Shown: positions 6,688 to 34,029, counted from the stretch's first letter. The stretch is DNA of 64,000 bases from Psammoneis japonica (GCA_008632985.1 QPGO01000118.1:62001-126000); one strand, 5' to 3'. Notes: a model not told the origin generated them from the sequence alone. Made by a program: numbers and translations.

Positions 6688-6723
<36 letters not shown>

Positions 6724-9925: not shown

Positions 9926-9929
9926 GAGT

Positions 9930-10537
9930 TGAATTGCACTGCAAACCATCTCTCTAAAAAGAATGTGTTGATTCAATTCAAGAACAACCCCAATCTTGAA
10001 CGCTTGTTGGCATGGGGTGCATGCATGATTTTCTCTCTGCACTCTGTTTTGTTTTCTTTGTCAAACTGCCACAAACACCGCCCTTTGGTCATGGCATGAC
10101 TTTTGTGTTTGGTGCTTTCCTCCACCGACTGACGACGATGACGAAACGTGTGATTGTTGGAATTCCCATCGAATCGCCTGGTGGCTGGATTAGGCCATGA
10201 CGGTGATGGCCTTGGTGTTGGGGATGATTCAAATGAAAACTGAGGGCTGCAACAAAACGACCATGACGTTGTTTGTAGGAATCGCCGCAGTGATCCATTG
10301 AGCTCGTTTGTGGGATTCATAAGTACGTCAGGACACTTGACGTGGCCTGTTGGCATTGTATTTGTTATGGCTACCCTTGCCGGCATTGTCGAGTTGGTGG
10401 CGTGTGCGTCGTTCCATTTGAGCGTGGGAGGTCATGTTTGGTATGATTTGTTTCTTCACATTGCCATGCTGGTGGCGCTCTTGCTGGCACCGTCTCCTGA
10501 AAATGGAACCAAGGAACCGAAACCGAAGGACGCGTAG
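9930..10537 (+). pseudogene. Membrane-protein gene copy 2 (5' half mutated, ~260-bp internal deletion)
   Basis: Aligns to 1900-2769; segment equivalent to ~2265-2525 is missing; 3' end nearly identical to copy 1. Confidence 0.85.
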
Positions 10538-10838
10538 CTTCGAATATATTCCAAAGTCATAACTGCTTGCACAGCCTCACATCTATTTTAATTTGCTATT
10601 CAGCACTATCCTCCTAAGCAGGCAATTCACTCTAGAATTCTGTGTCTGGCGGCTTGAGAGTGATAAATGATACTATTGTTTTTTAAGAATATACACAACT
10701 TTGTGGAATGCAAACATGTTGCATTTTCTTATCGCCCGTGGCTCGCCTTTACTCAAACAGAGCAGGACTCGAATGCCCAGCCCAGAGCAATCTCAATGAG
10801 AACAAGAGAGAACCTGGCAAGCGATCCGGGCTCGCAGA

Positions 10839-11321
10839 TTAGTTGATGGGCTGTTCGTTTCCATTGCCTTGCACATGGTGTGCTGGCCGTTGATGTCTCC
10901 TACGTCTCCTACGTCGTGCTCCTATAAGACGCATAAAGACCAAGATCCGATCTCCGTGCCGAATTCCGTACGAACGAACTAGGCGTTCTCCCACCAGCTG
11001 CTGTCCTCCGAAAAGCAGGCGCTGTTGATCAGCTGGAATACCATCAATATTCTGCATCGTTGCCATCAAATCATTTACCGTGTCGTTGTACCTGACAAAT
11101 GCTTGATATTTGCGATCTGTTGTGTTGCTGATCTTCACGTTGAAGCCCAACTGTGGGAGCCGCGCGCTCAGCTCTCTGTGTTCTTGTTCTACCTTCTTTC
11201 TGTTTTCTTGTTCTAGCTTCAGCTCTCTGTTTTCTTGTTCTAGCTTCTTGTTCTCCTCAAGGACCTCCAACATGGCTTTGTCGCGTGTGGCAGCGGCAAC
11301 AAAGCGGCCAAGATCTGTCAT
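10839..11321 (-). CDS. Coiled-coil + ubiquitin-like domain protein (copy 2)
   Basis: 483-nt CDS; I see only three substitutions relative to 3071-3553. Confidence 0.8.
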   Translation of the reverse strand: MTDLGRFVAAATRDKAMLEVLEENKKLEQENRELKLEQENRKKVEQEHRELSARLPQLGFNVKISNTTDRKYQAFVRYNDTVNDLMATMQNIDGIPADQQRLLFGGQQLVGERLVRSYGIRHGDRILVFMRLIGARRRRRRRHQRPAHHVQGNGNEQPIN

Positions 11322-11466
11322 GATTGCAACTCCTGTTCGACTTCTCTTGCGCGTCCAGTTCTTTTCTTGCGTTGCTGTATGGATGGATGCTAATGTTGTG
11401 TACCGTATTGTTCCTCGTGCGGCAAAGCGGCTGAAGTTCGGTGCGCGCACGCACGTGTGTCAGGCT

Positions 11467-12304
11467 CGGTCTACAGGTGAACCGCGCCGGATCGGATCGC
11501 CGGATCGGATCGCGTCAGAATTCCGTTAGTCGACAGGTGGAACCGGATCGGATCGCGGATCGGATTCGACATTTTGATGAGTCGCAAAACGACGTAAGTT
11601 TCAAGATTCCAAATTCTCAAGAACAACAAAGCACTGAAATAGCGAACAACAGAGAGAGTGTGGCCATGATGCTTCACATCTTGTCATAACGAGACAATAT
11701 GACGACAGAACTATGCTGTTATTACTGCTTTACATACTTACTTGACCGCATCATTGAGCATCATTGTCACTCAGTGTTTGCAGCACGCTAAGGAAGAAAA
11801 AGCTATCACTTTTGCAATTCAGAAACTGACGCTATGTTTTCGTATTGAAATTTCGAATTACATAATAAATACTTGTTATTTTGCTTATTTAATGTTTCTC
11901 CAACAAATCTTTACGGCATTATCGGTTTGACAAGCTATTCTATTGCCATACGACCTTTTTCATCTCCATTTCAAGCATGGGAAGAGTAAGGCTGTAATGC
12001 TAAGGAAGTTCTGTGCCCTTATGGCTGAATGTTATGCCGCCCTGTATCATAATCGTGTGATGTTGCGCCATTGTCGTGATGACGGCACGGAATCTTCCAA
12101 ATTCGATCCGACATCCGATCCGGATTTTCGGATCGGACGGTCTTCGGAGCAAAATATTTTACTCCGAAGACCGTCCGATCCGAGATGGCGGATCAGTCCC
12201 ACGAAGGCCACGGATCGACTTTTTGACTCGATGGACTAATATTTTAATGGGTTATGAAGGAGTCGATCCGGCGATCCGATCCGGCTCGGTTCACCTGTAG
12301 ACCG
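11467..12304. mobile_element. Non-autonomous TIR element (MITE-like, 838 bp)
   Basis: ~40-bp TIRs CGGTCTACAGGTGAACCG(C/A)GCCGGATCGGATCGCCGGATCG; subterminal CGGAT arrays; no coding capacity recognised. Confidence 0.85.
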
Positions 12305-14549
12305 TGAGGAGTCTATGCGTCGACCGTTCTTCGCGCGCGCGCTCGCACGCACCCGAAGGTCTCCTCATAGACTCTCGCGGAAGTAAGACGGACGATGTAC
12401 CAGGGTCGTATGTAGGCCGTTTGTTACGGTGCCGTTTTTCTGGACATGCCGCAAGCGCATCGTCTCATTGCTGTTATCGGCATGAACGACTCCCAAGGCT
12501 GTCTAGGGCTGGCACTGTAGAATGAATCTTTTGCAGCATTGGGACGTTTTGAGCACACCATGACAAAGCCCTGCAGTTGCACAACTGCTGCATGGCTCCT
12601 CATTCCATCATTCACAATCGGATGTGTTGACCCTTTTCTCTCGGCTCGATCGCGCTAGCCACACATCGAACCACGACCTGTGAACTGTCACGCCAGGTCA
12701 TTGAGCTGGCAGCAGTCCACCAGCAGTTGCCGCAGGAGGCCGAAAAGAGAAGGGAGGATGCAAGAAGTGAGAACATCCGTGACACAGGATTCAAGAGAGG
12801 CAACAAAATTGGAAACATCAATGCAAAAAACAGAAACATTCTCACCGGCAATTAACGCCAAGGAAGAGACACGACAGTGCCGCCGCTGAGCACTGAGAGG
12901 CGTGCCAAAGAATGCTGCTGAATCCCCACCAAGCCCATTGATCAGCCTGCGTTTTCGATCCACGCTGCGTCTCAAAGCAGGAGATCTTGCCAGAGGCGAA
13001 AACAAAAACTGCAATTGTTGAGTCACAGAAGCAAATTGTGAGCAAAATCACAACACCAACTTGCCAATTGGCCTTTGCACACATTCTTTTGTGTCTCATG
13101 TGTGTGTGTGCTTGTCGCTGCAACGGCATTTGTCTCATCCCATTGCTGGAGGCATTCACACTGTCGCGAACTGATGAAATCCTGCGCAAAGTGCAAGCCC
13201 CATTGAGTGAGTTTGAATGCCAACAATTAACAACACTGTCATGTGAGCTTGCCTCCTTGACTCAGTGTCACCAAATGAGCACAGCCAATGCACTCAAATC
13301 TGCCCAAGCGGCAAGAAATCGACACAACCGTCCAAAAATCTCCAAAAATGTCATGAAACAGTGACGCCCAACCAAAAATGAGACCCCAGACCATCTTTGC
13401 CTCAAATCTCAGAGCTGTGGTCAAACCACGCCTCATGCAGACACCAACAAACAACACCAAGGTGCTCCATGGACTGAGAACCTGCGTGACAACAAGGAAG
13501 AGCCCATTCCGTGAGTGAGCACATTTCTGGCAAAAAACACAAAGCCATTTGTTACAAACAACAGAAACAACGGTTGCGCCACAAGAAAGACAATGCCATT
13601 GCAAGCCAATGACGAAAATGCGCACAAATTTCCATGTCATAACTCACAGGGTGCAATGGAGCGGAGCATGCGACGACAATCAACGACACATGTCAGCACC
13701 TGCCGAAAAAGTGACGATTTTGCACTCAGTCAGTCTCGGGGATAAATCAATCAAATGTTTGCCAATTTTCTCTGTTCCAACACCATGGTGCGCTTCAACA
13801 GTGAGTGTCTGAACAACCACTGAATGGTGCAAGGCACAGCGGTCGATGCACCGATGAAATCGATCATCGTTGGAACGGCACATTTTCTGGCATGTTTTGT
13901 GTAGAAAGCTCTGCAGAGCATTTCGCAAAATCCAGGGAGGCATGGCAACAAATTTTGAGCCACCGTCCGTCCAGAAAACGCATCCGCAGCATGGCAAGTG
14001 CAGTCATGATGGCGGCATGGAAATCTGATTGGACAAATGACGTCAGCTAAGAACCTTGTTGTTCACAATGAGCAATGATGACATCATCCTCACCCCACCA
14101 TCTCCTGTCCACCCCGCCGCCCGCGCTGGCCGTGGCGATTTGCTGCGCCCCAACTCAAACTTCAAAAGAGAAACATTCACAAGCCCCAAGAGACTCAGCA
14201 AGACAACAACACATCATGACACACAAACAGCACAAACCACCCATGACAGCGGCAACTTTCGGACTGGCGAGCACAAAAATGACGCCATTGGAACCGCAGC
14301 ATTTTTGTCAGCACGTGTGTGTTGTTTCTCTTTTTGTTCAATGCAAGTGCGACCCTCTTGTGGGACAATTTCAGCAACTTTCAAGTGGAAAGTTTTGCAC
14401 CGTCCTTCTTGGGCCATTTGGTCCACCTGCTCTAAAATCATTTGACTCACAAATGACACCGTTCAATCCGCCATGTCTAAATTGCTCTGTGTGGCAGTTT
14501 CTGTGCACCCGGAGCCTTCGCACTTCAACCCACTTCCCTTGCTTGATGA

Positions 14550-16618
14550 TCAGGCAGCTTCCACCTTTTGCCTCTTTGATGGCTTCTGAACAACCATTGC
14601 TGCATCCTGCCCAAGACCTTCTTGAATGCTGGTCATGTCACGTCGTTCCTTCGCCACCAACTTCTTCCTTTTGGCCCGCTCATGCGCAAAGCACTGACAA
14701 CAGAAGGCAACATGTTCTTCCTTCAGACTGTTGACTGCCGCCACCTGCATCTCTCTGGGCAGTGAAGAGAACCGACCAATGGTTCGCAAGTCGAGCAGCA
14801 AAGACATGAGCTGTTGTTCGCTGCACTCGATCTCCCCGACTTCCACCAGCCTGTTGTTTGTGTTGTTGCCCAAGAATCGACGCTCGAATTCTGTTGTAGC
14901 CCACTCCAAACAAACCTGCCCAACAGCAGACAGGTTGCTCACTTTCACCTCTTGGCGCGGCAGCTTTGGACTCGTGTCGACTTGCTCGGGCACAACCATG
15001 GAAATTGTTTCGCCAGTCAACTGCTTGTAAGTCGTGGTCTTGATGATGCTTCCACACCCAGCAGCACGTAGCTTCTCATGCTGGGACATGGTTGTGAGCA
15101 GTTGACACGGATTGAGAACAGCCTCGAACTCTCGGAAATGCTGCCGCAACATGCTGTTGGTGCCGAGTGCACCCCTGTTGGCCATGTTGTAAAGTTCAAT
15201 CGCTCGTTGCATCCGAAGAGCCCAGCTGAGCAGCTGGAACTCTGCTGCAACCCGTGCACCATTCAAGTCCAGCTTTGGCTTCAAGGTTGCCACATTGTTG
15301 GTCTCCGCTAGATCCGTCAGCTTCGAAAAACGTTTTTTGCACCGGAAGTGCTTCGCGACATTCTTGGCATCATTCATCACTTCAACTCCTTCCGGGAATG
15401 GATTGACTGGCTTTTTGTCCTTAGAACGCACTGGGGCTCCAACTGCAGATGCCCCAACCTTGTCCCCATCATGCATGTCACAGCCCTCTGTGTCTTTAAT
15501 CTTGGGAAAGTCCCTGGAAACTCCAGTTGCGGCACGATCCGACACCATGGAGCTCAGCACATTGTTCAACTCCATTCCAGTGCGGTCACGAAAAGTGCCC
15601 CGAAACAGTTTTGCGACCGCTGGATCCGTGCTGTCTTTTGATCTTCTAAATCCCATGCAAACAACAAGATTTGCGCACCAACACGGATCAATGAATTGCA
15701 AACCAAATGATTGACACTTGTTGTGGTTTGCCAGCGTGACGCCATCATGAATCCCTTGCCCAAAATGGTTGCCATGACTCTGGGCCACTTTCAACTGAAG
15801 TGTGATTTGAAGGAATTGTTTGAAAACTTCAAACTCCGCTCTAACGTGTCCTCCGAGCTTGTGCCGGGTCATCAACGGGACATCGGGATTTGCAGCACGC
15901 ATCATCTCTTGGAAAAATTCGTCTTCAAAGGTTCGCCCAGATGTGAGTGGGTTTCCATGCACGCACCAGGCTCCCTGTGCTGACAGGTTTTTTTGTTTGC
16001 AGGTGAGCATGAACCCCAACTTTTGCTGCTTCTTGGGCTTCTGCGCATTCGAGTCAGACTTCTGGCAAGACTCGGTGGCAGACTTCTCCACTGAGCACTG
16101 CAGTTGATGATCCGCAAGCTCTTCCTAAAACAAAACAAGCAACAAATGCAAGTCATTGGCGAAAGACTCTTTGCTGACACATGCACCCAAGCATGCAACA
16201 AGAGGGAACTGACCTTTTTCTTTTCATCCCGAGCTCGCTTTTCATTGTTTTCAGGTGAGTCGACATGCCACTTTTGGATGTGATGCACGGCTTTGGCAGT
16301 GCCCCAATGATCCTTGCCTTTGGGTTTAACAAGTGTCATAAATGGTGACTCGCAACCTTCCACAGTGCAGATGTGAGTGCACTCTTTTGCCATTGGATGA
16401 GTCGCTTGCAACCTTTTGACAGTGTCCCACACCGTGGACTTGTTGGGCCGATGACCAGGGGTGTTGGCACGCGTCAAATGCATGGGGTCCGTCTTCCAGG
16501 GCTCCTCCTTGTCTTCGCGAGAAGCCTCTCTCCCACTTTCCTCGGATGCTTTCGTGGTGCCGAAAAATTCCGCATCTTCGTCGGTGCTGGCAATCATGGT
16601 GTTGTTGGCGGCACTCAT
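14550..16618 (-). pseudogene. hAT-family transposase, join(16618..16214,16124..14550)
   Basis: BED-like finger (STVWDTV..HICTVEGC..HIQKWH), GIHDGVT, VSDRAA, GCDMH (CxxH), LNGARVAA; in-frame 89-nt GT-AG intron; C-terminus decayed. Confidence 0.75.
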
Positions 16619-17116
16619 GGTGTCTCAGATTGACACCATGGTGCATGAACCAAAGTGCAAAACCTTGGAGAAAGAAAATGCAAAATGTTGTGAGAAGCTG
16701 GCGCATGAGACAATCATCGACAACAACAAAACAACAATTGTTGAAACATTTGTTGGAACTTGCGCATTGAACATTTTGTCATGAACCAACACAATGGTTG
16801 AGCAATTGCTGAACAAATGCGTGCATGATTGCTGAACAAATGCACGACACAATTGCTGAACAAACATGCCACAATTGTTCAGCAATGCAACACGATCCAT
16901 CCCCCACATTCCAAAATGATGCTGCAGGCCAATCCACAACCGTTTGTTCAGTCTGCCGACGAGTGTTGTTGTCATCACTGATGGTGCCGCTGCCGCGGCA
17001 CTTGCCGCAACGATGTCTGAGCGAGCAGTGAGCAGGTGAGAGGTGCGAGCTGTTTGCCATCTCTTGACACAATGGCTCAAATTTTGATTGCAATCGACTG
17101 CAACCACCGACTGCGA

Positions 17117-17722
17117 TTGCGACCTCGGCACATTCCCAACAATCGAGTCTTTGCAATCGAGTTTGCAGTTGCAACTGCAATCAAAGTGGGGCCGATTGCA
17201 ATCGATCCTGGCAATTGGGCAACACTGGTTAAATCTGACAGTGAAATTACACGCCATTCACACGGAGAGAGCCGATTTTTGTGGAATTTTCAGCACCGAA
17301 ATGCGGCTCGCATCTCCTCCTTGGCATCCGTCCTGACGGGATGAAGGCTTTGTTTGTCGTGCAGTGGAATGTAAACACAACAACTCCTGTTGACCACTTT
17401 TTGGAGTTTGTCCTTTGCCATTGCGACCTCGGCACATTCCCAACAATCGAGTCATTGCAATCGAGTTTGCAGTTGCAACTGCAATCAAAGTGGGGCCGAT
17501 TGCAATCGATCCTGGCAATTGGGCAACACTGGTTAAATCTGACAGTGAAGTTGCACGCCATTCACACGGAGAGAGCCGATTTTTGTGGAATTTTCAGCAC
17601 CGAAATGCGGCTCGCATCTCCTCCTTGGCATCCGTCCTGACGGGATGAAGGCTTTGTTTGTCGTGCAGTGGAATGTAAACACAACAACTCCTGTTGACCA
17701 CTTTTTGGAGTTTGTCCTTTGC
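17117..17722. repeat. Tandem duplication, 2 x 304 bp
   Basis: Near-identical units starting TTGCGACCTCGGCACATTCC at ~17117 and 17421. Confidence 0.9.
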
Positions 17723-18390
17723 TTTTTCGAAAAGAGCCTCGGAATCGAGAAGAGCATTTCGCGCACAACCAAAAAATTTGCTGTTGACAATGATGCAAGC
17801 ATGCGGGCGTGTTCACTCATTTCTCGCCAATTGTGAGCATGCGGTCGTGACAATCACTTAATTTGTCATAAGTCTTGTGAGTTTCATTGTGAAAGAATGC
17901 GATTGAGTCGCGTTGTCATGGCATCAAAGACCGGCATGCAAAATCTTCGTCGCCATTGTCTCGTCCGTGTGGTTCTACATGGTTTTAGTGCCAGGCCTGC
18001 AGCGATGCCCGCGTTTCGCACTCGCTGAAATGGGGCGAAATTTTGTCGCTCATTTGGTGGCAACGTTTCTTTACAAGATTCACAGCCCAACCGGCGCGAC
18101 CAAGACACCGCTGGAAAGCTGAGAAAGTCCTCTTTCGATCTTTGGCAATGAAAATGACACAAAAACAGTTCTGTGCATGCATTTTTCATAGAAAAATTTA
18201 GCCAAATGCGCATCAATGGCGCGCACCTCTGTGGGGCCCTGCAAGTGCCGGCACTCGTGCCTGCGGTGCCTGCTGCAGGTGCTGGGGGGCAACAATGATG
18301 TCAACATTGCTTGTTGTGAAGAACAAAGTTCACAGCTGACGTCGTTTGTCCAATCAGATTTCCATGCTGCCGTTGTGACCGCACTCACCA

Positions 18391-18559
18391 TGCAGCAACT
18401 CACTCGCACGCTTCTGACACATGGCACCAATTTTGGACATTAGATTGGTGCAGCCGTTTGAGAGAGGCTTGCCAGTGTTCGCCAACGCTTGGGCTCCCCT
18501 CTCTTCGGTCTGCTCACTTCTTTGTTTTGACATCAGTTTCAGCTTGAGCTTGCACTGCA
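18391..18559 (+). repeat. 5' LTR (169 bp)
   Basis: Direct repeat of 24066-24236, TG...CA ends. Confidence 0.9.
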
Positions 18560-18786
18560 ATTACAGTTGATTGTAAAGAGCTGAATGAGAAACAACGATG
18601 CAACTAACAGGCTTGCGAAACAAGAGAAAAGAACATTGAGAGCGAAGGCAGCGAATTGGGCTTTGGAACAAAAACAGCAAAAGGAGACACGAAAACAACG
18701 CGAGCAGGATTTGGCGATTCGGGTTGCACAACTCGAGTCGAAGGTAGAGTGCTTGAAGCAGTTTCTTGGAGGACCAACTTGGCCTG

Positions 18787-19938
18787 ATGAGCAATCGCGA
18801 GAGCCTTGAAGAACCGTGCATTTTGCATGTTGTGAAATTTGCTCATTCGGATTTGGAACTTGCAAAATTGACTCAATCGCATGATGATGGTGGCACGCGT
18901 ACAAAGAAGTGCCCTTGTTTTGACGGAACTGATGGCATTGAAGCGTTGTTGTTCGTGGAAGATTGTTTTCGTAAACTGGCTGCAAAACTTGAATTCACTG
19001 CAGGCGAAGAACTGTTTGACAATTTCGAGGAAGTGTCGACAGACACCGCTGAAGACAAATGGTCCAATCTCACCATGGCGATTCCGAATGTGCAGAAGAC
19101 GGTGGCTCGTTTTGACCAAGAATTGGCTCGTTTTTATTTGTCACATTGTGAAACTGAAGCGCGTGACACGATGATTGAATGCTTGCTCTCTCTTAAAAAG
19201 CCATGTGATGTTGAAGCACAGGCACACGCGGATCGAATGGAGACCTCAGTGCGACACACGAACAAGTTGCCGGGAAACAATCCAGTTGTCACTCAGAACC
19301 AGAAGAAGAAGATGATCTTCGACAGCTTCCCTTTGTCGTGGCGCGAGATGCACACAAGAGCAGGACGCACGATTGGAAATGACACGTTGGCGGAAATTGT
19401 CGCGCACATGAGCACGGAGAAATCATTTGCAGATGGGAACAAGAAGACTTCAAAGAAGCGCAAAGACAGACAGTCGAAAGGTGGCGGCTCTGCCAAGAAG
19501 AAAGGCAATCGCATTGACCCAGAATCTCAATGTCCTTTGCATGCTCACAATCACAAGTGGAAAGATTGCGCCATGAATCCCGACTCTGACAACTGCCGTC
19601 CAAGAACTGATCGCGGAGGTCACGGATGTGGTGGCCGTGGCGGTCGAGGTGGCGGTCGAGGTGGAGGTCATGGTTGTGGCGGAGCGCAAGGTCGTGGTTG
19701 GCAAGGCCGTGGCTGTCAAGGTCATGGTGGCGGCCGAGGAAACTACGGTGGTCGCGGAAACTGTGACTCTGGCGGCAACAGCGGCGAGCATCATGATGAT
19801 GGTGGCTCTCACATGCAACATCAAAACGACACCCGAACCAATGCAAATGGCAGCGGTTGCGGCAATCCGGCCAGAACGGCTCCTCCCAATGATTGGTCTG
19901 CTGAAAGCCATCATCTTGATTCGACAGGAGGGCCTTGA
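18787..19938 (+). pseudogene. Gypsy gag
   Basis: Open frame with CPLHAHNHKWKDC knuckle-like motif and Gly/Arg-rich tail. Confidence 0.8.
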
Positions 19939-20055
19939 GAGCATCAAGGTGGAACGGGAAGTTTTCGACCTGGCGGTCGCTTCTCGGGACGCGGTCGACA
20001 CTGACCCAATGAGCTTGAAGAGCTGTCGTCCGAGTGTGTCGCTCCTGATTCTTTT

Positions 20056-23000
20056 GTGTTTGATGATTGTGCTGATTGCGTTGATGATTGTTGTGCACAT
20101 GCTGCTGATTTATTTGATGATGATGATTTCGGAAATTGTGCCATGAATGACGAAGACGATGTGGGACTTGAGTGCGCTGCACCAACCCCAAAAACAAAAC
20201 CAATTGGACCATTGAATGTGGTCCCTACAACCTCATTCGCGGCGCGATTCATTCAAGACAAGGAAAGCAAGCACGTGATGCGGGTGTCACTTGATTCCGG
20301 TGGAACCCATTCAATGATTCATGCTCGGGTGTTGCCGGTTGGAGCGGCTCCAGCATTGGAAGAGACAGGACCAATTCGTGCAAAGTTTGGGACAACAGCA
20401 GGAGAATTCGAATCAACTCGTCATGTTCGACTGCAAGACTTGGTGCTCCCTGAATTCGACAAGACCAAACATGTTGACGGCATGCATGCGCATGTGTTTG
20501 ACTCACCCTGCCAATGTGACATGATCCTTGGACAGGACTTCTTGGCGAGAGCGGGTGTCACATTGGATTTTGAACACGGAATTGTCAAGTGGCTCGGTTC
20601 AAGCATTGCGATGAAGCCAAGGAATCAGCGGACTGGCATCCAGCAATGGCTCGATGATTTGACTGATGAGCTGGCCAATGATGATGACGTGTGGGATGGC
20701 CACATCCTCGATGCAAAGCATGAGGAGACGTCCCCTTCTGAAGCAGCTTCAGCTCAGAAGCATCTCACTGCCGAACAGCAAGAGAAATTGCGCCTCGCAT
20801 TGGAAAAACACACTGCTCTTTTTGATGGCACCCTTGGCAAGCATGCTGACGAAAAAGTTCACCTTGACATTGATCCCAACGCCGTTCCGCACCATTCTCG
20901 AGCATGTGCAGTGCCGCACAATGATCTCGAGACTTTCAAGCAAGAATTGGATCATTTGGTGGCTCTTGGCATTCTTGAAGAAGCCGGAACTTCGGAATGG
21001 GCTGCAGGTGCCTTTGTTCGGCCGAAGAAAGATGGTCGAGTGCGGTGGCTCAGCGATTTTCGGGAACTCAACAAAGCCCTCAAGCGCAAGGTTTGTCCCT
21101 GACGCATTCCAGGTCTAGGTGGGACCTCGCACTGCTGAACTGTGACATCGACAGTTTTTTGAATCACGTCGCATGTCGCGCACGTAGATTTCTACGTGAT
21201 TTTTTTGATGTTTTGTGTCATTTTACGGTGCACTTGTTGAGCGATCCGTCCAACAACTTTTTGACATTTTTTGTTACAGTGCGATTCTACAATGTCTTAA
21301 GAATCGCGTAGGGCAGGTGCATTTGCAAAAACGTCGAGTGGCAAGAGGCACAATTGCACCACAAACTTGGCCGTTTATTTGATGTTGAAGACAAACATGT
21401 CCATCAATTAAATTCTCGTACTACGGAGCTCGCACGTAGAATTCTACGGGCCCAATGTCACACGGAGTCCCACCTGGGGCTGGAACGCGTCCCCTTGCCG
21501 ATCATTCAAGATGTGTTGCAAAAGAGAGCCGGGTGCAAATTTCTTACAAAGTTGGATCTCTCAATGATGTGCTGTGCGTTTGAACTGGACGACGATTCCA
21601 AAGATCTGACGACAATCGTGACACCCTTTGGAAAGTGTCGATGCTGCTGTCCAGCAATGGGTTTGAAGCCGGCTCTGGATGTTGCGCAACACTTGATTGA
21701 GAAAACTGTGCATGACTTGGACGTTGACGCACATGTTGATGATCTCGCTCAATTTGATGACAATTTTGATGTTCACCTTGCTCGTCTCGACAAACTCCTG
21801 CAACGTTTGGAAGAAGCTGGATTTAATGTGAACCCTTTGAAATGTGAATGGTGTGTGCAGGAAACGGATTTCCTTGGGCATTGGCCAACTCCAACTGGAA
21901 TTCGTCCGTGGAAGAAGAAAGTGGAAGCCATTCTGCGAACGCAACCTCCGGAAAATGTCAAGCAGCTTCGTTCATTTCTTGGTGCTGTGACATGCTGTCA
22001 CAACATGTGGCCTCGGCATTCTCACTTGTTGAAACCCTTGACAGATCTCACAGGCAAAGGCTCGTGGACGTGGACAGCAGATTGTCAGACGGCGTTCGAA
22101 GAGATGAAAGCAGCACTGGCGGCCAAAACGTTGATGGCGCATCCGAATCACAACAAACCCTTCCACATCTGTGCTGATGCCAGTGATTGCCAAATGGGCG
22201 CAGTGATTGCACAAGATGGAAAACCCATTGCATGCTGGTCTTGAAAGCCAAACGCGGCGCAACAAAACTGCTCGACGATCGAAAAAGAACTCTTGGCCAT
22301 TGTCATGTGCTTTCACGAATTCCGAACGATGCTCCTTGGTGGCGACTTGCATGCATTCACCGACCACAAGAACCTTGCCTTTCGCACCTTGAATTCACAA
22401 CGTGTGCTCCGTTGGCACCTCTTTCTGGAAGACTTTGCCCCTCAATTCCATTGTGTCGAAGGCCGCTTGAATGTCTTGGCTGATTGTTTTTCTTGTTTGC
22501 CTCACATGGATCCTCCCTCTGAAGGGAAGAGCTTGGCTCCGGGTGAAGGAACTGTTGTTGATTTTGCTCCGCTCGATTCGAAGTTGGTGCCGAGTGAGGA
22601 ACCATCCAAAGTCGAGGATTTCCGCGATGAGGACTTGGAGCTCGGCGCATGCTGATTCAAGTGTTGTCGCAACATTGAAAATGAAGGCCACTCACACTTC
22701 TTCTCTTTCTTTGTTGATGAGCCGGAACTGTTCGACTCCTTTTTGAATTGCCCTGCGATGCAGGAGATGCAAAATCCAGCGGCGTTACAACGGATTCAAG
22801 AGTGCCAGTTCGAGGACCAACAATTGAACCAGATGCGCATTGCTCACCCTGATCGTTTCCTTGTGGAACATGTGAACAATCGACCACTTGTGTGTCATCG
22901 CGTGCGACCAAATGATCCTCCAGGACAGTGGAAAATCTGTTTGCCGACTGCGCTCATGCCCGACATTTTATGGTGGCATCATCTCGTCCTTGGCCATGCC

Positions 23001-23942
23001 GGAAGCCAGCGCATGCGTGAAACAATCCAGGCTCATTGTTGTCACCCTGGGTTGCGTCGCATGTGTGATGAACATTCTTGTGCTGATTGCCAACGTGACA
23101 AAACTTTGGGTCCTGGCTGTGGAGAGCTGCCCGAATGAGAAGCTCCATTGACTCCCTGGTCGGAAGTGGCGGTTGACCTCATTGGCCCGTGGAAAATCAA
23201 AGTGCCGAATGGAGAGATTGAGTTTCAGGCATTGACCTGTGTTGATCCTGTCTCCAATCTTGTTGAACTGGTGAGAATTGAGAACAAAGCTGCTCAACAT
23301 GTTGCCAACCAATTCGAAAACTGCTGGCTTGCACGCTGTCCCAGACCAAATTGATGCATCCACGACAACGGCGGCGAGTTCACTGGGTGTGAGTTTCAGA
23401 TGCCATTGCAACGAGCCGGAATTGATGATGTGCCGACCACTTCACACAACCCTCAAGCCAGTGCCATTTGTGAACAAATGCACCAGACTGTCGGCAATGC
23501 ATTGCGCACGCTCATTGCTTCCAATCCACCTCAAAACCTTCAGGATGCAGCCAGCCTCGTGGACGATGCTTTGGCAACTGCAATGTGTGCAACCCGCTGT
23601 GCTGTTTCCCATTCCTTGCAGATTTCACCAGGTGCTGTGGTGTTCGGACGTGACATGATCTTGGACATCCCAGTGCTGGCGGATTTGTTGACGATTCAAG
23701 GCCATCGCCAGACGCTGATCAACGACAACTTGCGACGAGCCAATGCCAAGAGAAGATCCTGCGATTGTCAAGTGGGTGATCAAGTTCCAATCAAGTGCAC
23801 TGAGCCATCCAGACTCGAGCCTCATGCTCATGGTCCTCACCCCATTGTTCAAGTGCATGTAAATGGCACACTCTCGGTTCGTCGAGCTCCTCATGTGGTT
23901 GAGTGCCTCAACACTCGGCGCCTGATTCCTTTTCGCGGTTGA
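20056..23942 (+). pseudogene. Gypsy pol (protease, RT, RNase H, integrase), interrupted by a MITE and several stops
   Basis: LDSGGT, KKDGRVRWLSDFRELNK, HVDD (YxDD position), DASDCQMGAVI, EKELL, VAVDLIGPW, HDNGGEF, NPQASAICE, HGPHPI (GPY position). Confidence 0.92.
21101..21491. mobile_element. 391-bp MITE inserted in RT, 4-bp TSD CCCT
   Basis: 25-bp imperfect TIRs GACGC(A/G)TTCCAG....AGGTGGGAC; removing it with one CCCT restores ...RKVCP-LPIIQD. Confidence 0.92.
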
Positions 23943-24065
23943 TCAGGGGGGTTTCTTCCCAACACCTGGGTTTCCTCCTGCTGTCATCTTCACTTTTGGT
24001 TTTGGTCCTTGGTTTTTGGCCCTTTGCATGATCCTCCAGTTCTTTTGGATCATGGAAGGGAAGAG

Positions 24066-24236
24066 TGCAGCAACTCACTCGCACGCTTCTGACATGTGGT
24101 GTCAATTTTGGACATTAGACCAACGCAGCCGTTTGAGAGAGGCTCGCCAGCGTTCGCTGACGCTCAGGCTCCCCTCTCTTCGGTCTGCTCACTTCTTTGT
24201 TTTGACATCAGTTTCAGCTTGAGCTTGCATGCCACA
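24066..24236 (+). repeat. 3' LTR (171 bp)
   Basis: Direct repeat of 18391-18559 preceded by a polypurine tract. Confidence 0.9.
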
Positions 24237-24498
24237 CCGCAGACACGTTTTCTGCCGTCCGTCTCACTTCCGTGAGAGTCTGCCAGCACATTGTCCCGGG
24301 AATGCAACCCATGTTGCATTGCGCAGTGTTTCTCCGTTGAATTCTGCACCTTGTGCTGACCGTCACCCCCACTTCAGGGACCGCATCTTCCATGTCATTG
24401 TGGAGGAAGCACGGGGATTTTTCCCGCATCGAAACAACCGGGTTGTTGCATGGTACGTCGCGTTTCTGACAGATTCATGCAACAATGCAACGGAGACC

Positions 24499-24815
24499 AT
24501 GCCATCTAAAAAGCACTGCAAGCCAACCTTGACAGCACTCACGTCATTTCTTGACGGGGTGACTTGTCAATGTGAACAAGACTTCACCAACCAGAGGCCA
24601 TTCAAACAACCCCCAACGATGTCGTGGTGGATGGATCTAAAGGCGTGTGGAACGCCCGAACCAGGCGACAACAGCTTGCCCACGCAAGCAAGGTCAAATT
24701 GGTTGGAACACTGGAAGAAGCCCATTTCCAGCCACGTGTCAAACCGATTGGTGCCGTGGAATGTTCTGTCAAATCAAGGCAACCCGACACGATCAACTGA
24801 CATAAAAAACCTTGT
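24499..24815 (+). pseudogene. N-terminal fragment of a Crypton-like tyrosine-recombinase transposon protein
   Basis: KACGTPEP..PTQARSNWLEHWKKPISS..NRLVPWN..GNPTRSTDI resembles stramenopile Crypton N-termini (recalled, not searched). Confidence 0.55.
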
Positions 24816-25668
24816 GCCATGTTTGACATTCATGTTTGACATTCTTTGTTACATGCAGTGCGTGTCTGGGGCTTCATTCTACCTTGTTCAATCCACAACA
24901 TCGCTGGAGCACCCCTTCCAATTGAAGCATGTTTTCTGTGCGCACGGCATCCAATAAATCCATCTGCACAGAATGGAATTTTGCACAACAAAACCAAGCC
25001 TCTTGGATTCCTTGTACAATTTCCATTGACAATGAAACAAGAGTCGCAAAAATCGGCCCAAGGGATGTTGAGATGTCACCGCCGCCAACTCTTGACCATA
25101 AATTCCAATGGCAGCTCAATTTTGATTATTCAACGATAAGTTCCGAAGAGAAAGTCAGCACCGAAAAAACCCAAGCCCCATGGACACCTTGTAGCACACA
25201 CGTCAAAATGATGACAAGAAGTGAGAAACAACACCAAAGACACAACAGCATGTCACAAAAATCCGTCATGTTGGTGCTGCATTCTCACAATTTTTGCACC
25301 GTACCTTCAGCGACAAATCCGCCTCGACGGAATGAACTCAACGCCAGCGCCACTAGACCATCACATTGCTTGTATAAAATCTCCGAATGCTGCAAAAAGA
25401 AACGGGAAAATACGGCAAAAATAGATATAGATATCAGCGACGCAAAGTTCGCCGCGCGTCTTGGAGGGTGCTGTAGGTTGATGTAGCGGAAGTCGGTGTC
25501 TGTGCTTTCCTGGTGACCCTGTAGAAGAAGTACTAGACCCTACGCAGTTGTACCCAGGGTTGTATTCTTTCCGTCTACCTACCTCCACAGTACCACCTTC
25601 GGGTGCGTGCGAGCGCGCGAGCGAAGAACGGTCGACGCATAGACTCACGATGGAGAGTGATGCCGACC

Positions 25669-27207
25669 GACCAGGACAAAACGGGTGACAGCGCGCATCA
25701 CGCGCACAGAAATCCACAACATTCCGATTCAAAAACAACCAACCGTCACCTCGCTCCATGACCGTCAGTTTGTTGCGTCCGTCTCATCCCGGTGGCCTGT
25801 ATTGTTGCTGTACGACACATCAGATCCCCTATTCATCCGCTATGGGCAAAGAAGGCTGCTGATCACTGGTGTATCACGTTCTCGATAAAGATGGAATGTC
25901 GTTTGATGACTTATGCACCATTTTTCGGCACAGAGCGACAGTGCGTGGCAGGTAGAGACGACTCGTTTATTGTGTATGTTGACACCAACTGGCTTGTCTC
26001 GGAAATGTAGCAATCATGTCTATGGACTTATTATTGGGAATAGGCAGCAGTGTAAGTGGCAACCGTGTGCCTTGTTGCGTGCCAGCAGTTGTGTGTGTCT
26101 GCACTTGCACTTGATTTATCTATTGCTTTGGATACACTTCTTTATTATCCCACGTAAGACATATGGAGTGGGCTTTGTTAAGAATTCAGACGTTGCCATG
26201 GGTCGGAAGACTATGTTTCTAAAGAATCTTCCATGTCAATGATGGCGCACTGCTTGTTGCAGACAATGGATTATGGATTCATGGATGGCACACGCGACGG
26301 TACAATTGCGGATGGCATACGTGTGGCATATTTCTTGGTTCAAAGCATGATCATGGAACAGACAGCGGCTCTTTACTTGGAATCACACTTGGTCGTTCCA
26401 ACAGTGTTGATGATGGCGCACTACTCGGTGCAGACAATGGATTCATGGATGATGGATGGCAGAGGGCTCGCCGCCTCTAACACTTTGGGACCATGCTATT
26501 GTGTCTGCAATCGTCAAGGCCAATCCTAGACTGCTGAATTCAACGCCAACCGTTTGAAGGTGGGTTCATGGCTTTGAAAAGTGTGATCCGTACCGCACGA
26601 ATCATCTTGTCTCGGCATACGGCAGTGGTGCAGCACCCATGCCAACACACTAGAACAACACATCTCATGTGCTTGAGCGTTTTTGAGACGAGTTCATGAA
26701 ACGCTTGTCTTTGGTGCATGCAACAGGGACAATTTGAACTTGTTCTGTCGAGTCACAGTTACAGTAATATGACAAGGTATAGATTGCCTGCTTGCTGCGA
26801 GTAGAGAGTAGATAAGACTCAGATGGTCCTAGTGACAGAATGTTAACAAGTGACAAACACACATGCTAAAGATGGATAGGTTCACTGTCCATGTCTCGGA
26901 GCTGTCGGGACATGTTTAGGGTGGCTTCAAGGTCAACTCCATAGCGCCATGCCGTTGAACAATCGTGTGACACATGGCTTTCCAGGCTAATTTTATGCCC
27001 AAGCCTGCACTGTAAATGTGCATTGTTAATAACTGCTTCTTTTTACTGACAATGAAGGAGTTGTTTTGATCTTATTGTATCTAACAACCTTGTCACCTGC
27101 CATTCTCGTAACCGCTTGATGTTAGCGGAGGCTTTTGACATTTGGGATCTTACCTCGATTTTTTGCGCACGAGGCGCGCTGTCACCCGTTTTTTAATTGT
27201 CCTGGTC
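25669..27207. mobile_element. 1.5-kb non-autonomous TIR element carrying a host-gene fragment
   Basis: TIRs GACCAGGACAA(..)AACGGGTGACAGCGCGC at 25669-25714 and 27157-27207; internal PSxxPS-coding remnant on - strand ~26240-26460. Confidence 0.75.
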
Positions 27208-27320
27208 TCCATTTCGCTCGCAAATCGATCATGTGCCCAAAGAATGATCAAGCATAGACCAATGCCAACAATGCTGTCTGCACTGTGATGGACAAGCTGA
27301 TAATTTCAAATGAGCCGAAA

Positions 27321-30300
27321 GATGCTCGTTCGGCCTCTTGAGGTGATCTGAATGCAGGTGCCAAAACCAACTGAATGGGGAGTGGTGGGACTTCACTGGC
27401 GCAGCTGGTCCCCCCCAGTCCCACCCAACAAGCTGAAGCTCTGCATGGCCAGTGGGAGGGAGAGGTGGGAGCGCTTTTGGCCATCCAGCCAACTCTTGTT
27501 TCCAAAGCTCTTTGGAAGAATGAGAGGCAAGCAGCAAACTCATGTGCCAGCTTGGTGCCATGCGTTCAATGTTGGTGATGGGGAGAATGACCGACCTGCC
27601 ATTGAGTCATCAGCTGGCAACGGATCATCTGCACCCCCCCTTTTTTTGGCCCACATGAGGCCAGTGACTTGCACTGCTTTGCTCATTTGGCCTCTTGTGG
27701 TGATCTGAATCTGGGTGCCAGAACCTGGCTGAAGAATGATGGAGAAGAGTTGAGTGTCTGCAGTGCGCACCGAGGGGGCAGCAGTGCACTCTGTGGGATG
27801 CAGCAGAAAGAAGAATTCCAAGGTGGGTGACTGGCCATCATGTTGGCTGGTGCTTGCAAACCAGGTGGTTGGTTGAAGATGCAGCACACAGGATCCAAAA
27901 GAGGATGGTGACAGGGACCAGCCAGTTGGGCACCGCCGGAGGGTCTTCTTCTTTCTTGTGGAAATGTGTTTGGCGGGCAAGTCAGAAATCCATGTTGACT
28001 TGTTGGGGTGTGCAGCATGGATCTGGGCCCCCCATTGTTGCAGCAAACATTTGGCCAATTGAGTGCAGGGCACACTTGGCGGTTCTTGCCTGGACGATGA
28101 GGTTGCCCCTCTGCTGGGTGCAATGATGCCTGTGCAGTGTTGGTGCAGCATTGAGACCTGAAAGAAGACAACCGGGTCTTCGACATCTTGAAGTGGAGGG
28201 TTGATGGCCAGATTGATGCAAAATTTTCACCAGTTTGTCCCAGCAGGTGCAGCAGGAGGAGGAGGCAGAAGGGGTGATGCCATGGGCAATGGCGCACTGC
28301 ACAGCACTCTGAGGTCGCACAGGAGTGCAGTGCAGATGACGGGGTCCAGAGCCACCAGGATGGAGCCTGTGGATGGTGAGTGTCAAAATGGCACAGAAAG
28401 GTGTGGTTGGACAATGACTGCAAGCGTCATGAGGCATTGTCAGCAGCTGCTAAAAGCAGGCTCAGAAAGCAATCATCAAGGGAGAGGCAGCAGTGGTGGC
28501 GGTGATGCTGGCCCCGGTGGCGGAGGAGCTTGGAGGCTGCTTTTGCTGTGGCAGTGGAGCCTTTGCATTGGCAGTGCTTGTTGGACAACCAGATGCTGAT
28601 GCCACTGACGCTTGTCAGTGGCACACAGAACCAAAGCAAAAACAGATTTCACTTTTTTTGTTCTCGCCAAATTGTGGCCCAGCACTTTTCCAACCTTCAT
28701 GATGCCAGCTCAATCTTTCAAACTGAGTTGCCACTTGTCAATTCTTTGTCATTGTTGTTCAACCTCTTTCAGAGCCAGGAAACCATGTCACTCCATTTGA
28801 CATGTGTTTCTTGTGAGAATCAACAGCACCTTCACTGAGTTGTGACTGAGATCCACCCAGTCATTGCGCGAGTCCCATTTGACTCTTGTTTTGTGACAAG
28901 TGCAATGTGGGTCAGCATTGTTGTGACCAGCCATGATGGGGCCCCTGGGGTTTTTGCAGGTGGCTGAATGGCCGGCGATCATCTGCAACATGTTTTGGTG
29001 CTTGTGTCAAGAACGAAACGTGTTGATGAACAAAATTGTTGCATGCATGCCATCTCTGTCCACCAGTCTTCAATGTGCTTGCTTGTCAATTGTGCACTCT
29101 TGCAAACGTTCATTCTTCATCCACAAACAATCTGATTGTGAAACTTGTCAACAAACAAAATCATTGCAAATGTGCTGCTGCAACTCTGTCCATCCATTTT
29201 CAATTTGCACAGTTGTCAATTGTGCATCTTGCAAATGTCAAGTAAAAAACAATTTGACCATTTTTTCCCTTTTTAAGTTGTTGATGCCTGTGTGGCCCGT
29301 TTTGCGGTTGGCAGACACACATTTTTTCACACCACACCACACACAACATCGACACCAACAGCTGCAATGATGTGATGATTTTGTCTTTGCCATTGGGACA
29401 GAATCACCATGGCAGGGAGAGTTGCCAGTTTTGCACCACGGACTTCTGCACCAAATCCGCGCCACATCTGTTGTCCATCAGTGCCATCAAATCTTTCCTC
29501 CCTGCCCCAAGTGTGCCACGCACAGCACACACACATGGCAAGTTGGAAGTGTCCAAGTCATTGCTTGCTGAGAACAGCACTGCAGCGTGGAGTTGGCTCC
29601 GTTCACAAATTTAATGTTGCCTGGACAATGCTGCATGGGCAGGAGTGCTGCTGTGAGTTAACAGAAATGCAATGTGCTGAGTGCAATGATGGTGTTTGTT
29701 TGTTGGTGCCTCCCAAGTTTCTGGTGATTTCATTCCTTTTAGATGGCTGGCGTGTTTGGAGCATTTTTCCCTGCCGCCACTGACAATGTCAATGAACGAT
29801 CAACCATGGGATGAAACAAGTTCTGGCGAGTGAGTGTGCTGTCTTTCAAGCTGTTTCTCTCTTTCAGCACTGCTGCATTTGTCACTTTTTGTCCAACCCA
29901 TTTATTTGCTTCTTGCAGAGGTAGAATTTGTGCACACACCCAGCTCATTGCTTGCTGTCACTGAATCGCCTTCTCATGCTCCGTGGCAAGTGCATCCAGC
30001 ATGCATTCTCTGCATTGACTCATTTTGTTTTTTCTCAACCTCTTTGTTTTGCAATGATGTCTGTTCCCAGTTCTGCAGAAAAATGATGCACAATTGGGTG
30101 ACAAAGAAGAGAGCACAGGGGTGCAGCGCCATTGCTGTGACTGCTGCTGCTGGGAGCGCGGCACCATTTGGGTGACAAGAAAGGATGAGCTGCCACTGTG
30201 ACTGCCACAATTGCTGCTGTGTGACTGTTTTTATTTGCAACTCTGGTGGGGCGAGAACTGCTGCTGCTGTGACCTCTGCTGCTGCAATTGCTGTGGAAGG

Positions 30301-33300
30301 GGATTCCTTTGGTTGGTTGACAACAATGGGACAAGGTGCAGTGCCATGGTGGATGTCCCATGCACATTCTCAGTGCAGACTCTCTTTCTTTGTTTCCTCA
30401 ACCTGCTTGTTTTGCATTGACATTTGTCCCTGCGGCTGTTCCAACAATGGGGTGACAAGAAGGGGACAGGGCATCACTGCAGCACTCTCACTGTGAATGC
30501 TGCTGCAACTGCAGCCATGGCTGTTGTTGCTTGCGACTCTGGTGGGGCAACAACTGCCACTGACTGCTGCTGCTGTGACCACTGCTGCTGCTGTGACAGT
30601 TGGTTGGCAAGAATGGGACATGGTGTGATGCCACGGTGGATGTCCCATGCACGTTCTCTTTGTTGTTCATCAACATTTGCCTCTGCTGCTGCTGCTGCAA
30701 TTTCTGTGGTTGGGCAACAAGAAGGGGATGCAGTGCCAGTTGGGCCATGAGAAAGGCACTTGGCACTGCTGCTGCTGCTGCTGCTGCTGCTGGAACTGTC
30801 ACTTGGGACTGTGGTGGGGTGGCACATTTTCCACCAAATTGTCAACATTGACATTTGTTGGCGGAAACACCCCACTCTCCACCCACGGAACATTCAAGGT
30901 GCCAAACAGGGCATGCGCTGCACTCATGATGCTGACACCATTTGATGCCAAAGGTTGGCTCAATTGCTGCGACAATGGATTGAGTCTGGACACCAAATTG
31001 CAGTGTGTCTTACAAATGACATGGTTTGTCCTGTGCAGGACCTGGTTTGCAATTGCCATCCATCATTTTTGTCCATTTGCTGTTGGATTTCTGCTGAGCA
31101 CTGTGGCTGGGTGACATGCAGCCTCTGCTGGCTCACTGCTCTCTGCTCCAGCTGGCAGCCCCTAAAATGGATCAAGCAACATCTTAATCTGCACACAGTG
31201 CTGCACACAATGTCAGCCTGACTGTTTTTTGCAGATGGCAGCAATGGATGTTTTCCCACCATGGCAAGAGTCCTGCATTGACCAGTTGGTCCACATCATC
31301 CTGCTTCTTCTTGTTTGACATTTTCTTGACTCTCCAAAGACATTTTCAAAGGCATCTCCAGTGCTCTTCTTTCTCCATTTTGACCTGAACCCTGACAATG
31401 ACTTTGGCAAGCACACCCCCGCCCAGCACTGCAGGAAGAGAAGCACTGGGAACAGCAGGGAGAGTTGCTCAGATTTAAACTTGCCAAGGCATGGTCTTTG
31501 CATCTCACAAAGAAAGCAATGGTGCCACTGCTTGGAAAGCCATTGCCAGATGACAGAGACTGGGAAGAATGTCTCATCTTCTTCCCTCTTGCCATCGCCA
31601 CAAATGAGGACAATGGCCGCAGTTCATCAGCCACACATCCTCAGTTCCAAGGGGTTCACTCTGGTGGTGAGTTTTGTGACATGTCTTGCTGGTGTCTCCA
31701 GCAGGAGCAACAAGCTTGCTGGGTGGATGGTGCATGATGCATGGGCCAGTGCCACTTGAAAAACTAAAATGGAGCATGTGGTGGTGGTCCAGATCATCAT
31801 CATCACACCATCAGCACACATTGGTTTGAGTTGCTGCCTGCACAACACGCACCCCGAATGCACTTAGCCTGCATTTGTTGAGTGGCTTCTTGACCCAACT
31901 GCGGTGTCTTTGCACTCTTGATTTTGGAAGCTGCAAGCCTTGTCTTGGGCAGCAGCAGCAGCCCCTTGCACATGATTCCTCCACACAAGAAGATGCCCAG
32001 CTGCGCACAAGGTGAGGAGGCAGTGCCCACCAGCCAACCTGCAAAAACAACAAGGGAACCATCTGTGTGATGATGCAAGCACTCCATTGTCTTGGGATGG
32101 CTTTTGGTGGCTCAACCTGCAAGAAAGACAAGGGAGCCATCTGTGTGACAGTGCAAGCACTCCGTTGTCTTGGGATGGCTTTTGGTGGCTCAACCTGCAA
32201 GCAGGACAAGGGAGCCATCTCTGTGACAGTGCAAGCACTCAGTTGTCTGGGGATGGGCACAAGAGGCTCTGTTGGGTCCAGGAGGAGGCAGCAACAACAG
32301 TGGACTTTTGCCGATGCACAGCCCCTTTTCTTTCTGATGTGATTGGCTTGCTTTGGTGACCCAGCCACCCCACTTGCAGAGGCAAGGCAGGGAGCTTTCT
32401 GTGTGACAGCACAAGTGCCCGGATGTCTTTTGCTGGCCATGGGTGATTCCATTGTGTCCCAGGAGAGCCAACACCAACCTTGGTCGGGGAGCAAAGGCTT
32501 GTCTTGTGTCAATGATGTGGCCCCTTTTCTTTTTGACATGACTGGGGGTGGGCTTCTTTGGTCCAGCCAACACACCTGTGCAGAGACCATGGAGTGAAGC
32601 AAAAACACATTCACTGCAGAAATGACAAAACACAGAGCTGGCACAATCACATTGCAAGCAACACACAGCCAATGTGCGAGCATCTTAATGAGACAAATGA
32701 ATGTTGCAGTTGTCAGAAATGCACAATGTTGCAGAGCAGCTGCAATTGCATCCTTGTCAAGAAGTTTCATTGATCATCATTTCCCACTTGGAAGGTGGCA
32801 TTGATTGTGAACATGAACTGAATCATTTCAAAACCATTGTGGTCACAATCTTGTCAAGATCAAACAAAGAATTAGAGTCATTTTCATTTGAGTGTCAAGT
32901 CCCACTTGGAGTGTTGAAATGATCATCAAAATTGCTTCATGCACAATTGATGAGCACTTGTTAAGAACACAGGATTCTTAACAAGCAAGTGCAAGTTCTG
33001 AACAAGAGCCACAACATTTTCTAGATGATGGCTCATGAAAATGGCATTTGCTGTGCAATTGGTCCTGAGTCCATTTGAGGCCTTGATCAGGAATGCGGCC
33101 CATGTGGGAACACCTCAAAGTTGTGTGATGTGGGATGGTGTTTGGTGTCAGAAGTGCAGTGCTGACAGCACCATGACTGGCTGCATTGTGGCAGCTGGTG
33201 ACCATTGGCAGAAGTGGCGCCAGCTTGTCAGTTCTTGGAAATTGTCCAGGATTGAGCAAAAGTTGGTGGCAAAACAGACTTGGTCATCCAATGTTGTTTG

Positions 33301-34025: not shown

Positions 34026-34029
34026 GAGT

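Follow-up and report, generated by a model that had tools for sequence, protein, structure and literature searches.

A Ty3/Gypsy element without tyrosine in its pol records near-saturating TpA mutation in the diatom Psammoneis japonica

Why should a retrotransposon pol gene contain no tyrosine at all, when most of its homologues carry this residue even in the active-site motif of the reverse transcriptase (RT)? The question is raised by a Ty3/Gypsy element in a 64,000-nucleotide stretch of DNA from the diatom Psammoneis japonica (GCA_008632985.1 QPGO01000118.1:62001-126000), the whole of which is called the window here and within which all positions are counted. Our analyses showed that the absence of tyrosine is what a saturating TpA mutator in a diatom has left at the protein level, and that this process is a variant of one that has been described once. 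The element consists of the following parts, given in their order along the strand.

18386-18390, plus strand: left 5-bp target-site copy, CACCA, equal to the right copy except for CA versus TG
18391-18554, plus strand: 5' long terminal repeat (LTR) of the Ty3/Gypsy element, a 164-nt direct repeat of 24066-24229 with 16 mismatches, all transitions
18757-19938, plus strand: gag-like open reading frame (ORF), 393 aa from stop to stop, with 2 Tyr left and 36 tblastn high-scoring segment pairs to related loci
20005-21100, plus strand: pol part 1, aspartic protease and start of RT, with a weak Pfam match to Asp_protease_2 below the cut-off and 48-51% identity to P0001, P0006 and P0012
21101-21491, unstranded: miniature inverted-repeat transposable element (MITE) inside RT, 391 bp, with terminal inverted repeats and CCCT duplicated
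21492-23942, plus strand: pol part 2, RT, RNase H and integrase (Pfam RVT_1, RT_RNaseH, RT_RNaseH_2 and Integrase_H2C2), with 0 Tyr and 4 internal TGA stops
21732-21743, plus strand: RT active-site motif, which reads HVDD; 90% of 120 homologues have Tyr at the first position, and both Asp, 99-100% conserved, are kept
24066-24229, plus strand: 3' LTR, the pair of 18391-18554
24230-24234, plus strand: right 5-bp target-site copy, TGCCA, as read in the sequence

Judged by its sequence, the element is a Ty3/Gypsy LTR retrotransposon, with an RT that is Ty3-type by the best structure match: among solved structures, Ty3 RT matched the element best (4ol8 and 7q5b; E 1.5e-21 and 1.1e-20), and 7q5b carries the name Ty3-G Gag-Pol. 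Like other members of its class, the element has an LTR pair, a 5-bp target duplication, a gag and a pol with the domains in the order protease, RT, RNase H and integrase along the strand, as indicated by Pfam and by continuous alignment with full-length homologues. The LTRs end in TG...CA, and the flanking target duplication agrees except for the CA/TG difference. Unlike other Ty3/Gypsy elements, the present copy is dead, its pol being devoid of Tyr and interrupted by four stops and its RT by the MITE. The named matches of the RT, and those of a neighbouring PP2C gene, were from diatoms, and a contig from sequencing run X2 spans the empty target site of the element; by-eye comparison showed that this contig has TA at 24235 and 24244, where the window reads CA. 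Viral contigs yielded 30 pattern matches, 0 of which proved to be a relative.

We found no Tyr among the 1182 codons of the pol frame (20005-21102 joined to 21495-23942), in which Cys and His amount to 4.7% and 4.9%; in the 120 homologues used for comparison, Tyr averages 3.6%, with a minimum of 2.46%, as against 1.7% for Cys and 3.2% for His. Both pol pieces were aligned with the best 120 of 316 protein homologues, columns held by fewer than 30 of them being excluded. At columns conserved in at least 90%, Tyr was changed in 14 of 14 cases (11 to Cys and 3 to His), as against 19 of 232 columns of other residues (p=3.5e-14). At a threshold of at least 70%, it was changed in 21 of 21 (16 to Cys and 5 to His), as against 55 of 420 (p=7e-18), and control columns for Phe and Trp in this set were changed in only 2 of 39. 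With the threshold lowered to at least 50%, all 29 Tyr columns were changed, 24 to Cys or His and five to Phe, Trp or Arg. A first-pass annotation of positions 20056 to 23942 had proposed that the conserved tyrosines of the Gypsy pol systematically read Cys or His, the RT motif YxDD having become HVDD, and that Y>C/H would prove enriched when invariant Tyr was tabulated against other residues; both proposals are borne out by these counts.

The six pol motifs named in that annotation were all located in the range it covered: HVDD at 21732 (CATGTTGATGAT), LDLSMMCC at 21552, PFGKCRC at 21624, HICADASDCQ at 22164, PIACWS at 22224 and HGPHPI at 23829. A seventh motif, GGHGCGG, falls outside that range, occurring in gag at 19615 and 19663 inside an unalignable Gly-rich stretch; in gag outside this stretch, the six Tyr-majority columns read His or Cys in four cases, Phe in one and Tyr in one. 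Of the tyrosines cited as invariant in the family, those at 22170 (61%), 21636 (63%) and 23838 (52%) are not. The argument that the protein gives the direction of change independently of any paralogue was confirmed: the change of Tyr to Cys or His identifies TA as ancestral, but a CA/TG pair seen only between copies of the DNA might also derive from CG.

Is TAY (Y, pyrimidine) then the target, as had been claimed? It is the preferred context, but as a definition of the target it is too narrow, since TpA was affected in all codon phases, on both strands and in non-coding DNA, and TAG was also heavily hit. In codon alignments to the best 80 of 339 related metagenome loci, the TA columns conserved in at least 80% of loci had been lost in 21 of 21 cases, 17 to TG and 4 to CA; the related loci themselves retain TA at 1444 of 1581 conserved positions. 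Specifically, conserved A/T columns were changed at 43 of 45 sites where T lies 5' of A, as against 8 of 461 others, the further amino-acid outcomes of TpA change including Leu>Pro, Leu>Ser, Thr>Ala and Ile>Val. Transversions were seen at 12 of 855 conserved columns. Over pol, the density of TA is 2.0 per kb, compared with a median of 55 in the relatives, and its observed/expected ratio (o/e) is 0.03, compared with a median of 0.70; only 7 TA remain where about 195 are predicted from the relatives, a loss of about 96%. None of the 80 loci had a TA o/e below 0.41 over pol. Two low-TA segments, in L050 and L080, proved to be GC-rich stretches.

Both outcomes occur on one strand, the Tyr codons in the context RTAY (R, purine) having become TG in 8 cases and CA in 5. 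In the TA-erased domains of the window, listed below, the surviving TA comprise 2 RTAY, 40 YTAY/RTAR and 60 YTAR, as against 365, 657 and 212 in normal DNA of similar length. A four-parameter two-strand model of survival fits the 16 tetramers (2dLL, twice the gain in log-likelihood, of 161 over a model without context), with per-strand survival of 0.05 for TAT, 0.14 for TAC, 0.31 for TAG and 0.88 for TAA. A 3' pyrimidine and a purine two bases upstream are not told apart by survival alone. They are by the direction of change: Tyr codons preceded by a pyrimidine became Cys in 10 of 11 cases (p=0.012), and the ratios of the tetramers in the domains show the same tendency (1.38 versus 1.20, p=0.01), indicating that it is the A before Y that was changed. 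TAY is the context hit most, though not the sole target, and TAA is mostly spared. The products CA and TG were gained (o/e 1.73-1.74) as TpA was lost.

When these changes took place can be read from the ends of the element. The two LTRs differ at 16 of 164 sites, with 16 transitions and 0 transversions, and the differences include five CA/TG pairs, three TG/CG pairs and three changes beside CA/TG pairs; the target-site copies, CACCA and TGCCA, differ likewise. At integration, the two LTRs of an element have the same sequence, as have its two target copies; the changes must therefore have arisen in the chromosome, after insertion. The lack of LTR transversions, together with the loss of about 96% of TA, gives a rate that by rough estimate is about two orders of magnitude above background. 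At 18445-18449 and 24120-24124, one LTR has TTGG where the other has CCAA; each carries two neighbouring changes on the same strand, which hints at clustered action or at a 4-bp inversion. At 22779-22782, the window shows three A:T to G:C differences in 4 bp relative to all five covering sister contigs, which are not in plain TA context.

The MITE at 21101-21491 retains 14 TA and is partly edited. The depth of its contigs is about 70-100 times that of the Gypsy body, and empty-site joints were found in the contigs of the reads. Individual variant sites were taken from the matches listed, 40 of 687 rows; the four that fall in the MITE, all within 14 bp, have TA in sister copies and CA or TG here, which suggests that activity continued after the MITE arrived. 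The MITE is thus a partly edited late arrival rather than an immune sequence. Over the 687 variant rows, sister-copy variants by kind were C>T 161, G>A 135, A>G 136 and T>C 115, and such near-symmetric counts are expected if most sister copies were edited too. In addition, a 304-bp tandem duplication (17112-17722, 98%) lies within the erased domain and probably arose after most of the editing.

How far beyond the element does the loss of TA extend? Two-state segmentation of the 64-kb window called five TA-erased domains.

3632-10275, unstranded: TA-erased domain, paralogous to 27302-34403, TA o/e 0.04, CG o/e 0.23
12519-24802, unstranded: TA-erased domain holding the element, TA o/e 0.04-0.09 outside the MITE, CG o/e 0.77
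27302-34403, unstranded: TA-erased domain, TA o/e 0.05, CG o/e 0.23
54943-56125, unstranded: TA-erased 1.2-kb island between host ORFs, TA o/e 0.04, CG o/e 0.29
57999-62822, unstranded: TA-erased domain, TA o/e 0.02, CG o/e 0.08

These domains add up to 31.7 kb, about half of the window, with a TA o/e of 0.05, as against 0.57 in the remaining 32.3 kb, which includes the host genes; eight host ORFs contain 80 Tyr. Apart from one weak match, Pfam gave no identity for the four other erased domains, and no Gypsy homology was found in them; we infer that they are of mobile origin from their being repeated. Among 37 further ORFs of the window, Pfam detected only ubiquitin-like and rhomboid domains and one weak match. 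The island at 54943-56125 is enclosed by a cluster of host genes with normal TA (39512-57482), in which Pfam identified two MYND-finger ORFs, TLDc, PP2C, kinesin, MFS/nodulin-like and methyltransferase.

Several repeats adjoin the erased domains. A pair of 52-bp inverted repeats (12309-12360 and 25595-25646, 98%) flanks the whole of the Gypsy-holding domain and possibly bounds a 13.3-kb DNA element, the ends of which keep TA and the interior of which is erased; Pfam found no transposase in this putative element. Two elements bounded by inverted repeats, at 11467-12304 (838 bp) and 25669-27201 (about 1.5 kb), have mostly normal TA. A segment with a ubiquitin-like ORF is present in three copies (2525-3645, 10293-11420 and 34377-35435), each adjoining an erased domain and keeping TA. 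Between the copies of this 1.1-kb segment, which are 83-97.5% identical, TA is kept at 41 of 44 and 26 of 41 sites. Duplication as such may therefore not suffice to set off the loss of TA, although the segment could be too young or gene-protected.

The stops in pol have a different origin. In-frame TGA had been attributed to CGA>TGA, and this fits the four internal TGA codons, which lie at Arg-majority columns (81, 39, 94 and 60%); a fifth TGA, at 21100, was created at the junction of the 391-bp insertion in RT. Conserved Arg columns were changed in 10 of 33 cases, to Cys, His, Gln or stop, and C>T was found at 6 of 68 conserved CG sites, as against 0 of 269 other C sites. Partial CpG decay is a second, weaker and slower layer beside the loss of TpA. 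In the four other erased domains the CG o/e is 0.08-0.29, as against 0.77 in the Gypsy domain, although TA is equally erased, indicating that the loss of TA saturates first; CG loss may serve as a clock for the domains. The CpG decay of methylated transposons leaves the same TG and CA products and is present here as this second layer, but it cannot alter Tyr codons and is far weaker in the element than the change at TpA (6/68 versus 43/45). According to passages of PMC9998398, transposon methylation in Phaeodactylum is DNMT5a-dependent and diatom DNMT4 is a relative of RID/DMTA, and the CpG decay in the same domains fits the diatom transposon methylation described there.

The direction of change, the dinucleotide, the action on both strands, the timing after integration, the near saturation and the sparing of host genes are established by these comparisons, and we have little doubt that a process of TpA hypermutation as such was at work. 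As to its agent, we give about an even chance to the full scenario in which a young Ty3/Gypsy element inserted in an older repeat and the domain was then hypermutated at TpA by a TadA/ADAT-type deaminase; taken alone, and granted the process, deaminase chemistry stands slightly better than even. A host enzyme would act on silenced, probably methylated, chromatin, where a DNA adenine deaminase of the TadA/ADAT fold would turn A into inosine, to be copied as G. TpA would thus become TpG or CpA, by an A:T to G:C change at the A after T on either strand, fastest with a 3' pyrimidine, and the element would be killed by missense, Tyr being replaced by Cys or His, YxDD included, without new stops being made. 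This type of enzyme is favoured because the changes are pure transitions and because engineered TadA editors share the context preferences: in passages of PMC8989541, such editors favour a preceding T, gain with a 3' C, lose with a 3' A and produce less than 1% transversions. In addition, part of PMC10354150 describes a natural ADAT2 that deaminates A in DNA.

Other facts weigh against the deaminase. The natural A-to-I DNA ADAT2 prefers GAA, not TA (same part of PMC10354150), and the TadA editors are far less TA-specific, with a gain of 25-52% after T (passages of PMC8989541). Lesions on the A side and on the T side look alike in the sequence alone, and within pol the tetramers by themselves do not give a significant direction signal (163:151; homologue median 0.96). 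A match to a deaminase family was found in 0 of the 55 window ORFs scanned. Moreover, the support from short reads is limited to a single sample, which may be the source of the assembly itself, and is thus not independent. Of the three sequencing runs listed, all from this sample, none is of RNA, which has no bearing on expression.

The main rival is a mark on the thymine side, which we consider unlikely: a TET/JBP-type enzyme would oxidise the T in TpA of silenced repeats to 5-hydroxymethyluracil (5hmU) or 5-formyluracil, which would be miscopied or repaired to C, and TpA would decay as methylated CpG does. On the T strand the motif can be read just as well as R-T-A, and such a mark would account for the sharp domain borders. 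However, 5hmU normally pairs with A, and near-complete conversion with no LTR transversion demands a very miscoding lesion. Moreover, TC shows just a slight deficit in the erased domains (o/e 0.93 versus 1.14), where TA stands at 0.05. In dinoflagellates, a TET/JBP homologue makes 5hmU, which is concentrated in repeats, silences transposons and replaces T preferentially in TA and TC, according to passages of PMC11572971, from which T>C mutagenesis is absent; the main text of that paper does not contain the word 'diatom'. A Y-family (eta-like) polymerase ranks third and is a little less likely still; it would resynthesise patches of heterochromatin and place G opposite template T at WA motifs (W, A or T). 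Pol eta does favour A>G at WA motifs (passages of PMC4042646), the three LTR changes mentioned above adjoin CA/TG pairs, and A>G after A occurs in 4 of the 40 listed variant rows. The excess at AA that would be expected of it as a secondary target is weak and not significant (6 of 161 after A versus 4 of 340 after C or G, p=0.08; p=0.14 at a looser threshold), and AA is not depleted (o/e 1.26). Somatic hypermutation, furthermore, has frequent A/T transversions (9.1 versus 15.5 per 100, same passages), whereas 21 of 21 TA changes and 16 of 16 LTR differences here are transitions.

Editing during retrotransposition, in which A-to-I RNA editing or cDNA deamination would be fixed by reverse transcription, is largely refuted and in our judgement highly improbable. 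The element is indeed a retrotransposon, ADAR favours a 5' U (passages of bioRxiv 10.64898/2026.01.13.699255), and Cys exceeds His by 18 to 6, although this excess largely tracks the 3' context, being 8:5 where both strands read TAY. Against such editing, A>G and T>C are found together in one copy, the LTRs and the target-site copies, the latter being host DNA, have come to differ after integration, and flanking DNA, the MITE and the four non-Gypsy domains are affected as well. We find it just as hard to believe that no mutator acted, and that selection on UpA, a codon bias of the family or an assembly artefact produced the pattern. TA is mildly under-represented everywhere, even in normal DNA (o/e 0.57), and the reads are short and from a single sample; but selection would not destroy YxDD, 0 of 80 relatives reach so low a TA o/e over pol, and the embedded MITE and the adjacent genes retain TA. 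As to an artefact, 45% of the 31-mers sampled are present in run X1, and among the 6200 contigs compared, 1031 are at least 99% alike. Two other candidates had been dropped, 6-methyladenine because ApT is not depleted (0.89 versus 0.93) and an ultraviolet TA photoproduct because its chemistry would be expected to give transversions.

TpA hypermutation has been described in the rhizarian Bigelowiella natans, where it affects DNA of giant viruses and virophages that has been integrated (Mettrop et al., bioRxiv 10.64898/2026.01.13.699255). Passages of this preprint report that the spectrum is seen de novo in mutation-accumulation lines and that TpA-poor coding sequences are enriched for transposase and RT domains, and propose an ADAT2-like deaminase. 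As far as these passages describe it, the B. natans process resembles ours in changing TpA to TpG or CpA on both strands, locally and in foreign DNA, with genes spared, and on sequence grounds all its features, namely A:T to G:C transitions, restriction to TpA, both strands and local action that spares genes, recur in the diatom. The two cases differ in that the host is a rhizarian there and a diatom here, that the targets here are multi-copy transposons, and that the giant-virus region has a TA o/e of 0.45, as against 0.02-0.09 here over half of the 64-kb window. In addition, the B. natans process was observed de novo, whereas the diatom case is inferred from fossil sequences; the latter adds, relative to the same passages, a hierarchy of 3' contexts and co-occurring CpG decay. 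The words diatom, stramenopile, tyrosine, trinucleotide and CpG had 0 matches in the main text of the preprint. No prior report in diatoms was found in the full-text literature, from which subscription papers are mostly absent; the Bigelowiella preprint was the only one retrieved.

Repeat-induced point mutation (RIP) of ascomycetes makes dense, strand-symmetric, dinucleotide-specific transitions from CpA to TpA, which inactivate repeats, create stops and cease near gene borders. The diatom pattern is like RIP in its dense, strand-symmetric, dinucleotide-specific transitions that disable repeats and end near gene borders, but it runs in the opposite direction, with TpA lost, CA/TG gained and no stops made, and it is this direction that sets it outside RIP. 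APOBEC3 is said to edit the DNA of LTR retroelements in the host, converting C to U on one strand of the cDNA during reverse transcription. The likeness lies in a host hypermutation that disables retroelements; unlike one-strand editing of the APOBEC3 or ADAR type before integration, the changes here are A:T to G:C, on both strands and after integration.

Some of the related metagenome loci show similar changes on a smaller scale. In L060, which is the same element as L053, TA>TG/CA occurred at 8 of 81 conserved columns, as against 2 of 407 (p=1.4e-5, uncorrected for the 80 loci), and in L070 5 of 18 conserved TA columns were changed, all from Tyr to Cys or His. The weak excess in these three loci is entirely in TAY context, stops are present in all of them, and their overall TA is not depleted. 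These two unrelated, decayed Gypsy elements from metagenomes provide a lead, and only a lead, to the process in other organisms. L005 and L006 also rank high for TA change and look like ordinary divergence.

We tentatively propose, with rather less than even confidence, that diatoms and rhizarians share a genome-defence system, in which a natural deaminase of DNA adenine that recognises TA(Y), guided to domains of silenced chromatin, would act to saturation and disable transposons for good by removing their Tyr, as an adenine counterpart of RIP. Under that proposal, and with the same reserve, the TAY-type excess in L060/L053 and L070 might be a trace of this defence in other lineages. With the diatom case, a process so far described in one preprint of 2026 would reach a second major lineage of algae, and its acting to completion on transposons would make a role in defence much more plausible. 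The order of contexts, TAT, TAC, TAG, TAA, is a fingerprint with which the enzyme may be sought; for base-editing research, a natural deaminase of DNA adenine with high TA specificity would be of interest. For genome analysis, the erasure of TA raises the GC content of repeats, leaves long gene-like open frames and inflates ages estimated from LTRs, and a Tyr-free RT rich in Cys and His offers a cheap screen for the process in other genomes.

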